From: a phage
Length of the DNA stretch: 64,000 nt
Reading direction: 5' to 3' (one strand)
NCBI GenBank assembly: GCA_014437165.1
Contig: GCA_014437165.1_4090.3
The position numbers were made by a program, and so were the translations under genes. Within the stretch, counting starts at the first letter, position 1. Each line of letters starts with the position of its first letter. Under the pieces are notes generated by a model. That model was not told the origin of the DNA. It did no database searches and saw nothing but the letters and a program-made list of their open reading frames with translations. Below are positions 47,409 to 63,898 of the stretch, in pieces.

Positions 47409-47651
47409 ATGAAAGTACTGACAGAACTAGAAATGTATCATAGATTTAATAAGTACTATCATTTACTTAAGCCTATACAGAGGATTAAATGTCCATTTGA
47501 AGAGAAACAGGTTTTAATCTATGAGCACAAGTTCTTTGTATCATTAGGTACAGATCAACAAGAGTACTATTTGACGTTGTACTTGATTACATTAATAGAT
47601 TTAATTCACTATAAAACCAAACAAGCTAATAAAGAGAAATATGAAAACTAA
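47409..47651 (+). CDS. family B small protein
   Basis: ATG 47409 directly after previous stop; LGTDQQEYY. Confidence 0.6.
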   Translation: MKVLTELEMYHRFNKYYHLLKPIQRIKCPFEEKQVLIYEHKFFVSLGTDQQEYYLTLYLITLIDLIHYKTKQANKEKYEN

Positions 47652-47985
47652 TATACAACTCAAGGTATATAAATCATTTGAACATACATATATCAAAAGT
47701 AGTCTATGTAGAGATGTAATGGATTACAAGGGTAAGCCATTCACAATTACCTATGATTCTTATGTTAGTGATTTATATATATCATTTGTTAATTACGAAA
47801 ATAAAATATACAAGCACGTTGATATTAAAGATTTAAGTACTTTATCACCAGAGGAATACTTTCAGGAATCATTAGTATGGGATTTAGAGTTTCCTATGCC
47901 ATTAGTACATAAGATGATAGTACTAATGAAAGAATCTAAACAGGAGCCTAATGGTGATTATGAAGAACACACAGTTGAGTATTAA
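47641..47985 (+). CDS. family C protein (…LSPEEYFQESLVWDLEFP…)
   Basis: core motif E-E-Y-F-Q-x-S-L-V-x-D. Confidence 0.65.
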   Translation: MKTNIQLKVYKSFEHTYIKSSLCRDVMDYKGKPFTITYDSYVSDLYISFVNYENKIYKHVDIKDLSTLSPEEYFQESLVWDLEFPMPLVHKMIVLMKESKQEPNGDYEEHTVEY

Positions 47986-48355
47986 AAGTACTGATAATAC
48001 TAAGAGTTATACAAGCTCAAGTACTGTGACAATCGAAGTGAATTCTATTAATGCTGGTAATGCAGTAGATAAGTTCTTTATTGCTCAAGGGTACAGGAAA
48101 GATATTCATCAATACTGTTCAGTATATGGGGAGTACAATTCTACTGAAGATATAATTTATTGGTCAACACATCAAGATTATATAACTAAAATTGGCGTTC
48201 CAGATGTTAGTACTTTATCTGAAGAAGAATACTTTCAGTACAGCTTAGTACATGATGTACCTATACCTTTAGAGTTGCTCAAGGGTATACAGGAAGAGGT
48301 TCATAAGCTTAAATCCATGAGTTCAGGTACTTTCATTAGAACAGTGCAATACTAG
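47951..48355 (+). CDS. family C protein (…LSEEEYFQYSLVHDVPIP…)
   Basis: SD CAGGAG before ATG 47951. Confidence 0.65.
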   Translation: MVIMKNTQLSIKSTDNTKSYTSSSTVTIEVNSINAGNAVDKFFIAQGYRKDIHQYCSVYGEYNSTEDIIYWSTHQDYITKIGVPDVSTLSEEEYFQYSLVHDVPIPLELLKGIQEEVHKLKSMSSGTFIRTVQY

Positions 48356-48414
48356 CTTGACAGTACTTTTCATTACTGATATAGTACACTAACGTTAATC
48401 ATAGGGTAAAAATT

Positions 48415-48660
48415 ATGTTAAATTTTTTAAATTTCCTTATCGTTTTGTGTATTGTTCTTGGGATTGCACCATTTGTATTGTATTTCATGGATTCAGATGA
48501 AATGCAGAAGATGAATTGCACAAGGACAGGACAGAGTAGAGAAGAGACGATTCTTATGCCTGTTACGGTTATTGTTAACAACATGCCCATTACAAACATG
48601 GTCCCTACCCTAACGACAACGTACCAGTACTCTTGTGCTGACGGTGAGAGGTGGAGATGA
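48415..48660 (+). CDS. small protein with N-terminal hydrophobic (TM/signal-like) segment
   Basis: MLNFLNFLIVLCIVLGIAPFVLYF…. Confidence 0.5.
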   Translation: MLNFLNFLIVLCIVLGIAPFVLYFMDSDEMQKMNCTRTGQSREETILMPVTVIVNNMPITNMVPTLTTTYQYSCADGERWR

Positions 48661-48977
48661 AATTTAATATAGCAAAAACATCGAGTATATGTATTTTTGG
48701 TTATGCTGATGAGTTAGGTGATATTGACATTCTTTTGTACAAAAAGGATGGTGTTATGCATTTCAAGTACCAGGATGAAGAGGCAGACAATTATCCTTTA
48801 CCTAATTTAGTACAAATGCAGGAAGATGAATTATTCCAGTACAGCTTAGTATACGACATTGATATTTGCACGATGCCAGTACTAATTAGTATTCAAAAAG
48901 TGATGCTCGATATGTATGATAAGCTAATACAAGGTACATCAGGGAGAATCATTGAAATCGATATACAAGACAATTAA
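48651..48977 (+). CDS. family C protein (…EDELFQYSLVYDIDI…)
   Basis: SD GAGGTGGAG; core motif. Confidence 0.65.
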   Translation: MEMKFNIAKTSSICIFGYADELGDIDILLYKKDGVMHFKYQDEEADNYPLPNLVQMQEDELFQYSLVYDIDICTMPVLISIQKVMLDMYDKLIQGTSGRIIEIDIQDN

Positions 48978-49170
48978 TCAAGAATGGAAGACCCAAAAGT
49001 ACAGGGAATTCAACAGGAATTTTACAAAAGATGCATTGAATTTAAAAACAACAGAGTTTGATATGTTTATTTTTCTTGGAACACGTTCACAAGAACAATT
49101 TGTTCATTATTATATAAATTCGTTGCGAACGGAGATAGTATGCAAAACACAGGGTATTATAAAAAGGTAA
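48952..49170 (+). CDS. family B small protein (dispersed copy); apparent TTG start
   Basis: FLGTRSQEQFV…; SD AGGGAGAA 5 nt before TTG; no in-frame ATG. Confidence 0.5.
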   Translation: MKSIYKTINQEWKTQKYREFNRNFTKDALNLKTTEFDMFIFLGTRSQEQFVHYYINSLRTEIVCKTQGIIKR

Positions 49171-62022: not shown

Positions 62023-62218
62023 TCGAATTGAATACATGAGAACTGTGAGTGCAGTGTGGGACATATGGTTCACTACTAAACCAAAAATGGATTACCATGA
62101 CTTTAAGCTCTTGTTCTTCGTTGGCTCTAACAAACAGGATGTTGCAATGAAGGGTTATATTCAGCACTTACAGGAACTAATCCAGAAGAGAATATATGAA
62201 AATAATAGACCAAAATGA
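61997..62218 (+). CDS. family B small protein (dispersed copy)
   Basis: FVGSNKQDVAMKGYIQHLQELIQKRI. Confidence 0.55.
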   Translation: MMKYSKTFNRIEYMRTVSAVWDIWFTTKPKMDYHDFKLLFFVGSNKQDVAMKGYIQHLQELIQKRIYENNRPK

Positions 62219-62387
62219 CATTGCTAAACTATTCAATATATATTCTACTAGAATGATGCAAACAGACTCATATAGTACTGAATTCAAAGAGTTGAAAGTC
62301 CTGATGTACTTGGGAACCCAATATCAGGAACAAGTTATTTTGGAATATATTAATTCGCTGAAGAAGGATATCCGTTATGTACGATGA
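62196..62387 (+). CDS. family B small protein (dispersed copy)
   Basis: YLGTQYQEQVILEYINSLKKDI. Confidence 0.6.
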   Translation: MKIIDQNDIAKLFNIYSTRMMQTDSYSTEFKELKVLMYLGTQYQEQVILEYINSLKKDIRYVR

Positions 62388-62937
62388 TTTAGATATTGCG
62401 TTTGAACGTATGGTAATTTTAATGCAATGTGCAGAAATGCATGAAACAATCCGTCGCACCAAAGGGATTGAATATACAAGTAAACTATTCTCATACGAAA
62501 GTCGTCGAGGGATGGATCATTTTTACTGCACTGATTGTTCAAAGTTTTCAGTACTGAAATATTATCATCCTACTGTTTCCAATAATAGTTTAATATCCAC
62601 ATATGACGGTGATCTGTTTAGTGTAATGTATGACACATTACATCCATCAATTTCAATCTATAAAGATTGCGATAGTAGTTTATCGTATATAATTGAAGAT
62701 TACTTATCTCCTAATACTGAAGAGAATATTTTTCAGAACAGTGTGTTGCATGATGAATTAAGTATAAAATGCATCTATATGTTCAATAAGTTAAAAGAGT
62801 ACGCCGATAATAATTACTTAATTGATAAGTTAGCAGTATTGTCTGTTTCCGTTTTTAATACAAATGACATTGATATGAAATACTATAATGAGATTTGTAA
62901 AGTACATCATATGTATAAGGAACTATTATGTCAATAA
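62377..62937 (+). CDS. family C protein (…EENIFQNSVLHDELS…)
   Basis: core motif. Confidence 0.6.
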   Translation: MYDDLDIAFERMVILMQCAEMHETIRRTKGIEYTSKLFSYESRRGMDHFYCTDCSKFSVLKYYHPTVSNNSLISTYDGDLFSVMYDTLHPSISIYKDCDSSLSYIIEDYLSPNTEENIFQNSVLHDELSIKCIYMFNKLKEYADNNYLIDKLAVLSVSVFNTNDIDMKYYNEICKVHHMYKELLCQ

Positions 62938-63530
62938 ATGCAAATAAATGTTGTAGTGCAGATGTGCATTTGTTTTTTAAGAAATTAGCAAATGATATTA
63001 TATATATGCAGGAAATGATTTATCACAAACGAGCGGATTTAGAAAAAGCATTAGTACAGTTCTCATTTATGCTTGATGGTGATATATTTCTAGAGAGTGA
63101 TGCATTGCGAATAGTATTAGACAAAAATGCTAAAAGATTTTTATTTCATATAGATAATAAATTATGTTCCTCCGTATGTCGTACTTTTTATAATCGTGAT
63201 TCGGACTTATATCAATTCCTTTATTCTAAAGGTGCAGTAGAAGCATCATATGGTGATGGTTATGCCCTAGGAAAGAGTATTCCATTTATGAAATCATTTA
63301 AAATAGAACACATCAGTACTGATGAAGATGCAATGTTCACAAATGATATAACTATGGGACGTGAAGATGCAATGCGATATATTACAAATTCTATGCATAC
63401 ATTCTTTCAACGAACAGAATTTGATAATGTATATATATCAAATGTAAATATTTTCAATGACCTGTGTCAGTACTTGAGAAGTGTTTGTGATTTTGATGAA
63501 AGCTATTGTAAGCTTTATACTGAGGTATAA
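62928..63530 (+). CDS. hypothetical protein (200 aa)
   Basis: coupled ORF. Confidence 0.5.
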   Translation: MSINANKCCSADVHLFFKKLANDIIYMQEMIYHKRADLEKALVQFSFMLDGDIFLESDALRIVLDKNAKRFLFHIDNKLCSSVCRTFYNRDSDLYQFLYSKGAVEASYGDGYALGKSIPFMKSFKIEHISTDEDAMFTNDITMGREDAMRYITNSMHTFFQRTEFDNVYISNVNIFNDLCQYLRSVCDFDESYCKLYTEV

Positions 63531-63535
63531 AACAA

Positions 63536-63898
63536 ATGAACACATTAAGTATTACATACTATACAACTAAAAAATTAGTTACTTGTTTAATATCATTGAA
63601 GACAAACCATGATGATATGTTTGATATGGCTGCATATGAATTAGAATTATCAGAAGATGGCTTCAAGAGCTATGAAGTATATAGCTATGTTCGTGAAGAT
63701 GTAATTGACACTACACTAATGCAAGAGGATGAGTTATTCCAAGAAAGTTTAGTATGGGATAATAAGTACGATTGTAACTTTGATTTCTTATGTTTAATCC
63801 AGAAAGAAATGAAAAGAATCTTTGATAATTATCCAGTGAAGAGATTGAGTACTGGACCGGAGCAGTACAGGAGAATTTTATTCCGTTATGAAGACTGA
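63536..63898 (+). CDS. family C protein (…QEDELFQESLVWDNKYDC…)
   Basis: core motif. Confidence 0.6.
   Translation: MNTLSITYYTTKKLVTCLISLKTNHDDMFDMAAYELELSEDGFKSYEVYSYVREDVIDTTLMQEDELFQESLVWDNKYDCNFDFLCLIQKEMKRIFDNYPVKRLSTGPEQYRRILFRYED

Follow-up and report, generated by a model that had tools for sequence, protein, structure and literature searches.

Large eukaryotic DNA viruses carry terminal multigene families, including MGF110/360/505 of ASFV, the ankyrin/PRANC and Bcl-2-like families of poxviruses, and the US22/SUKH arrays of herpesviruses. In phages, early clusters for host takeover are found in T4, in T5 (pre-early genes), and in SPO1 (terminal redundancy). An expansion of zinc ribbons to about 35 copies in Bacillus phage G has been called "unprecedented" (PMC7824862). 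The passages of that survey matched by a term search do not mention the family described here, though the survey cites coliphage 121Q. We analyzed a 64,000-nt stretch of phage DNA (the window; GCA_014437165.1), which is 98.8% identical to the Asteriusvirus jumbo coliphage phAPEC6. It holds a tandem array of paralogous genes, Family C. The family is real: in RaK2-like jumbo phages, one family of small proteins has undergone a very large, lineage-specific expansion.

A large family with a common motif

Twenty-six plus-strand genes in 47641-63898 clearly carry the core (S/T)-E-E-x-F-Q-x-S-(L/T)-(V/I)-x-D, and two more are marginal. The pattern F-Q-x-[SAQNE]-[LTMCSV]-[VILMYAT], applied to ORFs of at least 45 aa, matched 28 of the 48 plus-strand ORFs in this region compared to 2 of the 244 ORFs elsewhere in the window. 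When the residues of the same ORFs were shuffled 1000 times, the mean number of motif-bearing ORFs was 0.46 (maximum 4) versus the 28 observed. An HMM of the C-terminal domain scored 26 ORFs at E values of 1e-12 to 5e-21. Since these 26 are the HMM's own seeds, the independent checks are the shuffles and a leave-out test, in which the profile was built without the doubtful members. Alignments, HMMs, and shuffling together bear out the more than 20 paralogs with a common core reported in the first-pass annotation.

The leave-out profile placed 17541-18212, 41043-41408, 3226-3888, and 61486-62022 (in descending order) ahead of the best noise match, at E 0.18. The two dispersed copies proposed earlier, 3226-3888 and 17541-18212, are therefore both plausible, with their ranking reversed: 17541-18212 is the stronger.

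The position of the motif had been set beforehand as a point on which the family could fail. The motif forms one column block in the alignment. Its F is invariant and falls at 55-76% of protein length, 40-75 residues before the C-terminus; conservation of the Q is 90% or higher. The codons vary (TTC 16 and TTT 11 for F; CAG 15 and CAA 12 for Q), and the motif Ser is drawn from the AGY and TCN codon boxes alike. The motif is thus conserved at the protein level despite synonymous codon variation. Elsewhere the proteins, which are 103 to 207 aa long with curated starts, are mostly 20-40% identical over short stretches only, and hhalign of the short against the long subtype aligned the 17-residue motif alone. 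This agrees with the variable N-termini noted at first.

Individual members are listed in the table. The window has at least 28 copies. In phAPEC6, where Family C corresponds to gp404c-gp466c, the array extends about 13 kb beyond the window end, with 15-19 further members, and another 7-11 copies are scattered at 29-59 kb. The phAPEC6 genome has roughly 50-60 copies, about a tenth of all its genes. The range first given for the array, 47641-63898, does hold the members but is incomplete.

Table. Family C members and neighboring elements in the window
Feature	Position	Strand	Evidence and remarks
Short type, 114 aa, LSPEEYFQESLVWD	47641..47985	+	HMM E 1.6e-13 (seed); = phAPEC6 gp466c; ph0011 ortholog 93% identical
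Short type, 134 aa	47951..48355	+	HMM E 1.3e-15; gp465c; replaced or absent in ph0011
Putative sigma-70-type promoter, TTGACA-17-TATAGT with extended -10 TG	48357..48385	+	11/12 consensus match; in intergenic gap >10 nt
Short type, 106 aa from annotated ATG (longest ORF: GTG at 48651)	48657..48977	+	HMM E 5.5e-17; gp463c
Long type, 182 aa	50113..50661	+	HMM E 5e-16; gp460c
Short type, 103 aa	50651..50962	+	HMM E 3.8e-17; gp459c
Long type, 188 aa	50934..51500	+	HMM E 1.5e-17; gp458c; no counterpart in ph0011
Long type, 168 aa	51807..52313	+	HMM E 1.4e-15; gp456c
Terminator-like hairpin (52301-52322), then putative sigma-70-type promoter (52339-52367)	52301..52367	+	Consensus matches only
Long type, 170 aa from annotated start (longest ORF from 52234)	52396..52908	+	HMM E 5.9e-14; gp455c
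Long type, 179 aa	52905..53444	+	HMM E 1.4e-19; no clear ortholog in ph0011
Long type, 204 aa	53446..54060	+	HMM E 5.9e-15; gp453c
Possible truncated member, uncertain, 64 aa; DSFQLELLH 45 residues before C-terminus	54062..54256	+	Regex match only; HMM not significant
Long type, 171 aa	54265..54780	+	HMM E 6.8e-16
Short type, 113 aa, weaker motif ARFQYETAYD	54777..55118	+	HMM E 1.1e-12
Long type, 183 aa from annotated start	55129..55680	+	HMM E 2.7e-15; gp450c
Putative sigma-70-like promoter	56290..56319	+	10/12 match; in 197-nt gap before 56475 gene
Short type, 125 aa	56475..56852	+	HMM E 9.6e-17; gp447c
Pseudogene-like fragment copying first 28 codons of 57381 gene	56849..57013	+	BLASTP 93% over 28 aa; adjoins 57010-57381
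Short type, 123 aa; some strains only	57010..57381	+	HMM E 3.6e-15; ortholog absent from PBECO4 and ph0011
Short type, 118 aa, modeled representative	57381..57737	+	AlphaFold pLDDT 81.8, pTM 0.79; motif = helix 65-74
Short type, 119 aa	57734..58093	+	HMM E 6.1e-17; 39% identity to 57381 gene
Long type, 163 aa, GPWDSEEYYFQQSTVYD subgroup	58103..58594	+	HMM E 4.8e-21; 56% identity to 59506-59994; no separate ortholog in ph0011
Long type, 156 aa	58596..59066	+	HMM E 2.8e-17
Long type, 147 aa	59063..59506	+	HMM E 4.9e-17
Long type, 162 aa	59506..59994	+	HMM E 1.1e-19
Long type, 150 aa	59972..60424	+	HMM E 3.7e-19
Short type, 104 aa	60421..60735	+	HMM E 1e-13
Long type, 149 aa, modeled representative	61040..61489	+	AlphaFold pLDDT 76.3, pTM 0.74; motif = helix 94-100
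Probable member, long type, 177 aa, degenerate motif EQCFQLSCTDPD	61489..62022	+	Leave-out HMM E 0.03; same architecture, within array
Long type, 186 aa	62377..62937	+	HMM E 5.1e-14
Possible degenerate member, uncertain, 200 aa; DAMFTNDITMG replaces motif	62928..63530	+	Aligns with long type; HMM not significant
Short type, 120 aa	63536..63898	+	HMM E 9.9e-18; gp429c; array runs on past here in phAPEC6
Degenerate outlying member, 121 aa; FAKEAKKWD in place of FQxSLVxD	41043..41408	+	BLASTP E 1e-4 and 5e-4 to two members; leave-out HMM E 0.018
Dispersed member, 223 aa; EEELFMYSTVID near C-terminus	17541..18212	+	Leave-out HMM E 1.5e-4
Probable dispersed member, 220 aa; SDLMFQYSLIHKD	3226..3888	+	Leave-out HMM E 0.028, domain E 0.0045; = phAPEC6 gp011c

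Protein properties and predicted fold

Family C proteins are mostly acidic, with a median pI of 4.96 compared to 6.1 for other ORFs. Among 31 proteins examined, 26 have a net charge of -2 to -26 and the remaining five are slightly basic. No signal peptide or membrane segment was found in them. In AlphaFold models of two representatives (scores in the table), the helix predicted with the highest confidence is the one that contains the motif, and it packs against an antiparallel sheet. In the predicted alpha/beta scaffold, common to all members, antiparallel strands come first, then the motif helix, another helix, and a last strand. The long type is predicted to have an extra N-terminal helix and a C-terminal helix. 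The motif itself is predicted to start with an N-capping box (S/T-x-x-E) and to go on as a helix whose faces are mostly hydrophobic, suggesting that it is the structural nucleus of the fold. By a helical-wheel argument, it is probably buried.

Outside the motif the family has diverged to saturation, and the invariant polar residues (Q, S, D, and E-E) could mark a shared functional site, not a purely structural one. In an adaptor model, the acidic-aromatic helix docks a single partner (a host or phage protease, RNA polymerase, or chaperone) while the variable part picks the substrate, much like the ankyrin/PRANC or F-box proteins of poxviruses. Conservation is far higher in the motif than elsewhere, with its acidic pair and D mostly kept even between genera without other similarity; omega is lowest over it (0.16), and a ClpP-like protease is encoded downstream of the array. 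We consider this reading unlikely. In both models the helix lies between the sheet and the second helix, it is hydrophobic toward most sides, and helices are commonly capped by S-x-x-E with a hydrophobic residue next to it. The ClpP-like gene encodes the prohead protease usual in such phages, and the partner is hypothetical.

Similarity to known families

The view that no characterized family has this signature held up in the databases searched. Pfam gave no significant match for 10 representatives, nor for any of the 21 sequences of the long type. Matches in NCBIfam and PADLOC were noise below threshold, and neither PDB sequences nor PDB folds matched significantly. No similarity to known anti-defence proteins or DNA mimics was found. 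PHROGs splits Family C into at least ten unconnected, unannotated families. Those matched, all of unknown function, were phrog_13866, 15629, 9317, 12674, 19795, 31297, 33775, 32681, 34359, and 29152. Each member matched one PHROG over the full length, with E 1e-53 to 1e-155 for 9 of the 10 proteins tested, and some members cross-match other PHROGs weakly via the motif region. PHROGs does not record that these clusters are one family, how many copies there are, or which motif they share.

Several other identities were rejected. In UniRef, an 87-aa near-copy (P0022) of the 47641 product is named "DUF2283 domain-containing", and the N-terminal ITYDSxxxDLYISF does resemble the start of DUF2283 (PF10049). 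P0022 scored 13.9 bits (E 0.063) against a gathering cut-off of 23, the window gene at 47641-47985 gave no match, and the resemblance is limited to one subgroup, outside the Family C motif. The "amidohydrolase 3" label of phAPEC6 gp447c has no Pfam support. Judged by the SUKH (Syd/Smi1-like) alpha+beta fold, Family C does not belong with the SUKH/US22-type polyimmunity arrays. A TPR protein (P0085) matched the profile only via the string EAEGYFQQSLVI, and Family C has no TPR match in Pfam.

The TEV protease site is ENLYFQ(G/S). Some members read EEGYFQGS or EEYYFQQS, and E-x-x-Y-F-Q-(G/S) could be taken as a potyvirus NIa or picornavirus 3C-type cleavage site in processed precursors. This is highly improbable and we disfavor it: the residue after Q varies (E, Y, Q, G, M, L, A, N), with no consistent S/G at P1', and the motif sits in a helix predicted with confidence. 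The TPR protein has the same string by chance, and 10 non-family array proteins of the window gave no protease-like match when scanned against Pfam.

Operon organization and relation to Family B

At 39 of 42 gene junctions in the array, the genes overlap or are at most 10 nt apart, leaving only three gaps of more than 10 nt. A Shine-Dalgarno-like motif precedes 20 of 28 genes. Family C is arranged in long, translationally coupled operons with a few putative sigma-70-type promoters, on the same strand as the immediate-early genes. In phage vB_Ec-M-J, the direct terminal repeat (DTR) spans 1-21525, followed by Family B from 21624 and Family C from 27350. The operons begin just after the DTR. The part of the window equivalent to the DTR has 19 exact copies of one strong sigma-70 promoter. 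The promoter-like sites and the map position would fit early expression of Family C.

The interleaving of Families B and C had been taken as a hint that they work together. This is not supported: only 4 of the 31 Family B genes (48952, 49140, 61997, and 62196) lie inside the C array, and the other 27 form a separate upstream block. Neither the 13 kb over which the C array continues nor the arrays scanned in Erwinia phages yielded a Family B gene. The two families are adjacent because both are located in the same early operons.

Conservation and selection

Erwinia jumbo phages hold related arrays at the same syntenic position, with at least 25 copies in Hallingskeid and at least 4 in pEa_SNUABM_12. 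Structural relatives are also present in Klebsiella phage RaK2. Individual genes have been gained or lost between strains, as seen in comparisons with PBECO4 and ph0011. Compared to ph0011, omega was 0.16 over the motif, with 0.31 in the N-terminal and 0.29 in the C-terminal part, and dN was 0.02-0.41 versus about 0.003-0.07 for upstream single-copy genes. Family C is therefore under purifying selection, yet diverges several-fold faster than the neighboring single-copy early genes. Pooled omega is well below 1, and at this coarse level the test gave no sign of positive selection.

These data bear on whether the array is non-functional or selfish DNA, made of decaying duplicates or over-called ORFs. 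The gene fragment at 56849-57013, several degenerate copies, and the "hypothetical" annotation of Family C genes in all records would fit. This explanation is nevertheless very hard to credit given omega values of 0.16-0.31, codon-level variation that preserves the motif, Shine-Dalgarno motifs with start/stop coupling, confident AlphaFold models, and ORFs that stay open in other genera as well as in about 37 phage genomes.

The paralogs might instead serve the phage itself, by regulating or chaperoning how it replicates, switches transcription, or assembles its many fibres and RCC1-like head proteins. Other genera have the array too, and in the same place, ahead of the same genes for nucleic-acid metabolism; the dispersed copies stand among DNA-metabolism genes, and selection is purifying throughout. 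However, core functions rarely need at least 50 saturated paralogs with strain-specific gain and loss, and an early-operon position does not fit a late-assembly role. Virion proteomics had been suggested as a check. The ESI-MS/MS list of 62 phAPEC6 virion proteins (its Table 1) has nothing between gp347 and gp549, and thus no Family C protein. We find an internal role improbable.

Proposed function

We tentatively favor the reading that Family C is a diversified early repertoire for host takeover or counter-defence, with one binder or inhibitor per host target. The proteins would be made early, by host RNA polymerase. Each paralog would stoichiometrically bind or inhibit a different host protein, belonging either to a defence system or to the housekeeping machinery. 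Binding would be via the diversified sheet and the N-terminal surface, while the conserved helix would only maintain the fold. Unequal recombination in the tandem array would create and delete copies, and the array would parallel, in a phage, the terminal multigene families that large eukaryotic DNA viruses carry. Of the features seen, acidity and genomic context are the ones that point to anti-defence proteins or DNA mimics. A strong arms race would be expected to leave a stronger signal than an omega well below 1 with no positive selection detected.

A bolder version is possible but doubtful. Family C would then be the largest phage protein-family expansion yet (at least 50 copies, about 10% of genes), using an unrecognized fold as a diversifiable binder scaffold. 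Each early paralog would neutralize a different host defence or factor, and the array would be one determinant of how RaK2-like jumbo phages persist and which hosts they infect.

Comparison with known systems

Jumbo phages have hundreds of genes without assigned function, and here about a tenth of the genes in a well-studied coliphage genus are one family with a signature. About 50 separate hypothetical proteins become one tractable question, as lessons from a single structure, a mutational study of the F-Q helix, and an interaction screen would carry over to every copy. For Pfam and PHROGs, Family C is also an example of a single family broken up by sequence clustering. If the paralogs are host-targeting effectors, the array would be a ready-made library of inhibitors against E. 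coli proteins or defence systems and a candidate host-range determinant for therapy phages.

Family C resembles the multigene families of eukaryotic viruses in being a tandem array near a genome end, with a single scaffold common to dozens of hyper-divergent paralogs, genes that come and go between strains, and non-structural proteins. It shares with the T4, T5, and SPO1 clusters small, often acidic proteins and, probably, use of the host sigma-70 polymerase and a place in the first-entering DNA, in or adjoining the terminal repeats. Those clusters consist mostly of unrelated single-copy genes, in contrast to the roughly 50 copies of one family found here. Like the zinc ribbons of phage G, Family C is a lineage-specific expansion of one small domain in a jumbo phage, but it has another fold, no Zn ligands, and more copies.

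Motif and membership of Family C

Family C, a set of small paralogs with an E-E-x-F-Q-x-S core, was checked with the regular expression F-Q-x-(S/A/Q/N/E)-(L/T/M/C/S/V)-(V/I/L/M/Y/A/T). Of 48 plus-strand array ORFs, 28 match this pattern, compared to a mean of 0.46 matches and a maximum of 4 in residue shuffles of the array ORFs. Outside the array, it was matched by 2 of 244 window ORFs. The core aligns in a single block across members, with its F 40-75 residues before the C-terminus. The consensus is D-x-x-x-L-(S/T/D)-E-E-x-F-Q-x-S-(L/T)-(V/I)-x-D, in which F is invariant and Q nearly invariant. 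Four doubtful ORFs ranked first among the non-members when searched with a leave-out profile, and noise began at E 0.18. Therefore, the regex, shuffle, alignment and leave-out results confirm both the more than 20 paralogs and the dispersed copies reported in the first-pass annotation (see table).

Synonymous codons are freely used at the motif F, Q, L and V, and Ser is encoded from both the AGY and TCN boxes; the motif is conserved as protein, not as DNA. Its polar residues are unusually conserved, which favors a model where the Family C proteins are adaptors for a common partner, although we consider this model rather unlikely. It is very improbable that the motif is a protease site; a TEV-site reading was tested and rejected.

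Two mini-families of 59-82-aa ORFs surround one of the dispersed members. The three minus-strand ORFs within the array (≤150 aa) are mutually similar; they are shadows of the plus-strand tandem paralogs and not genes.

Coordinates of Family C and neighboring features in the window
Feature	Position	Strand	Remark
Dispersed copy in first-pass annotation	3226-3888		leave-out profile E 0.028
Tandem ORFs, one BLAST cluster	4140-15962	-	12 ORFs
Mini-family	16517-19541	+	7 copies
Mini-family	16966-17530	+	3 copies
Possible dispersed copy in first-pass annotation	17541-18212		leave-out profile E 1.5e-4; lies among the mini-families
Terminal repeat equivalent	~21300-41500	+	~20 kb, small genes
Doubtful ORF	41043-41408		leave-out profile E 0.018; BLASTP ties to two Family C members
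Gap upstream of Family B	41409-41494		promoter-like sequence (our reading)
Family B block	41495-47651		directly after terminal repeat
Family C array	47641-63898	+	tandem
Promoter-like sites	48357, 52339, 56290		terminator-like hairpin before 52339
Family B gene within Family C array	48952-49170		
Family B gene within Family C array	49140-49406		
Counterpart of gp447c	56475-56852		ordinary Family C member
Short member, modeled	57381-57737		
Minus-strand ORFs	58286-58738, 59249-59398, 59875-60075	-	
Long member, modeled	61040-61489		
Doubtful ORF	61486-62022		leave-out profile E 0.03
Family B gene within Family C array	61997-62218		
Family B gene within Family C array	62196-62387		

Copy number and distribution

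In a megablast search of GenBank phages, the array matches Escherichia phage vB_EcoM_phAPEC6 with 98.8% identity over the full length. G17, SHEFM2K, slurp01, 121Q and other records match at 94-98.6% identity, and all these relatives are jumbo myoviruses of ~350 kb in the genus Asteriusvirus, RaK2-like group. In phAPEC6, 15-19 more members (within gp428c to gp404c) extend the array by ~13 kb beyond the window. A further 7-11 dispersed Family C-like copies, such as gp039c, gp054c, gp087c and gp093c (TEEEYFQMSTVQE), are found at 29-59 kb among DNA-metabolism and early genes. This gives ~50-60 members among the 551 phAPEC6 genes, and our copy numbers are lower bounds since phAPEC6 62-255 kb and the RaK2 genome lay outside the scan.

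With tblastn, single members reach only ~37 jumbo phages of Escherichia and Salmonella, and an Erwinia member used as the query matched only itself. Due to this narrow reach, breadth was assessed by HMM scans of syntenic regions. At least 25 members were found in Erwinia phage Hallingskeid and at least 4 in Eneladusvirus pEa_SNUABM_12, and a Logan metagenome contig related to Hallingskeid contains 12 at E <1e-3 and up to ~18 at relaxed thresholds. In every complete genome examined, the same gene block is directly downstream of the array, encoding Dam methylase, cytidyltransferase, RnlA, PseT, a phosphatase, DNA ligase and a protease. The Escherichia and Erwinia arrays have no one-to-one orthology, and similarity between the genera is as low as that between paralogs; thus, the comparison gives no date for the expansion.

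Genomic context and Family B

In phage vB_Ec-M-J, the direct terminal repeat is annotated at 1-21525, followed by Family B, a separate family of small proteins, from 21624 and by Family C from 27350. Within the equivalent part of the window, each small gene has its own near-identical sigma-70 promoter upstream: GTACTTGC-N18-TATAAT is present in 19 exact copies compared to 1.4 expected, and a GC-rich 5'-UTR hairpin (e.g., GGTGGGGAAT..TTCCCCACC) follows each promoter. The gene content of this part is far more mosaic across strains than that of the Family C array. In the B and C arrays, 39 of 42 gene junctions overlap or are ≤10 nt, Shine-Dalgarno-like motifs were seen for 20 of 28 genes, and the few sigma-70-like promoters are confined to rare gaps. 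This layout suggests delayed-early operons that would be entered directly after the repeat. No copy of the T4-type late promoter core, an octamer (TATAAATA), occurs on either strand of the 64-kb window, compared to 14.9 ± 3.9 expected.

The Family C proteins are mostly acidic (median pI 4.96). The 62 virion proteins of phAPEC6 include no product of gp348-gp548, and Family C is therefore non-structural. Elsewhere in the window, 12 minus-strand tandem ORFs, 10 of them 245-443 aa, are counterparts of the virion-detected phAPEC6 'DNA condensation proteins' gp003-gp009, gp549 and gp551; the two tested both match RCC1-like beta-propeller domains in Pfam.

Family B consists of 31 tandem paralogs of ~52-96 aa (~70 aa) with a conserved L-G-T-x-x-Q-x-x-h core. 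Two copies were tested against Pfam without a match, and omega is about 0.2-0.8 compared to phage ph0011. The interleaving of the two families had been taken as a hint that they work together. Co-occurrence does not bear this out, since only 4 of the 31 B genes are inside the Family C array, with none in the later part of the array or in the scanned Erwinia arrays.

Two architectures and a predicted fold

Short (~103-134 aa) and long (~147-207 aa) Family C members alternate within the array. When the profiles of the two types are compared, the 17-residue motif alone aligns (hhalign probability 65%), and the order of secondary-structure elements is the same in the AlphaFold2 models of both. In the short member (pLDDT 81.8, pTM 0.79), five antiparallel strands are predicted to precede the motif helix (65-74), which is followed by a second helix (83-99) and a closing strand. 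The long member (pLDDT 76.3) is predicted to have three further elements: a helix at each terminus and a variable insert modeled with low confidence. In both models, confidence is highest (94-95) in a 10-residue block containing the motif F-Q. The S/T-E-E-x residues can be read as a helix capping box. F-Q-x-S-L-V-x-D is hydrophobic on most helix faces, suggesting that the motif is a buried central helix.

Evolution of the array

Compared to ph0011, Family C orthologues show 52-95% identity and omega of 0.12-0.42, while the single-copy genes directly upstream show 87-100% identity and a median omega near 0.08 (our tally). Therefore, Family C is functional yet evolves several-fold faster, and it is scarcely credible that the array is junk DNA. 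Pooled omega is lowest at the motif (0.16), compared to 0.31 in the N-terminal part and 0.29 in the C-terminal part, and these regional dN/dS values against ph0011 revealed no positive selection.

Gene content also varies. The gene at 57010-57381 is absent in PBECO4 and ph0011, and the genes at 50934, 52905 and 58103 have no ph0011 counterpart. Within 56849-57381, a 54-codon ORF duplicates the first 28 codons of the gene at 57381 with 93% identity, adjoining the 57010-57381 insertion at its upstream edge. The duplicate looks like an insertion/duplication scar, and is a footprint of recombination inside the array.

Our reading, which we put forward tentatively, is that Family C may be an early, cytoplasmic, diversified repertoire of binders directed at host proteins. 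Our data establish the family itself, with its size, genomic context, mode of selection and absence from virions; its fold is a prediction, and its targets and timing are inferred. The family could instead have a regulatory or chaperone role internal to the phage, which seems to us fairly improbable.

Comparison with known families

Annotation across the matched region is 'hypothetical protein' throughout, with the sole exception of 'amidohydrolase 3' on phAPEC6 gp447c, a label without Pfam support. The 'putative ADP-ribosyl transferase' label on ph0011 gene 55359-55772 also lacks Pfam support, as judged via its presumed counterpart gp408c, paired by size and position only. Nothing significant was found for Family C in Pfam, NCBIfam or PADLOC, membership in DUF2283 was tested and rejected, and the best match of either subfamily profile among all PDB sequences had an E of 0.27 (hmmsearch).

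When all 1.84 billion representative proteins were searched with HMMER, 78 representatives had E <0.001, of which 77 are 65-241 aa. Two hits were false positives, one a TPR protein (241 aa) and the other a tandem-repeat ORF (528 aa), and almost all the others contain the motif. A search for the motif as a degenerate DNA pattern matched only 121Q and three IMG/VR contigs of 14-33 kb. These contigs each carry a single copy of the same 162-aa protein (3739-4227, 2077-2565 and 9044-9532) with LSEEEHFQQSLVRDD near its N-terminus (residues about 45-60) and no match in Pfam or PHROGs; the protein may be distantly related, or the motif may have arisen by chance.

PHROGs places Family C proteins in at least 10 separate 'unknown function' families. 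Foldseek matches of the models in BFVD are all uncharacterised proteins, from PBECO4, slurp01, Klebsiella phage RaK2 (E 3e-5, 20% identity) and Yersinia phage fHe-Yen9-04. Our literature search found no paper describing Family C. In a survey of 224 jumbo phages, the term-matched passages do not mention it; there, the expansion termed 'unprecedented' is that of a zinc ribbon in Bacillus phage G, with ~35 copies (PMC7824862).
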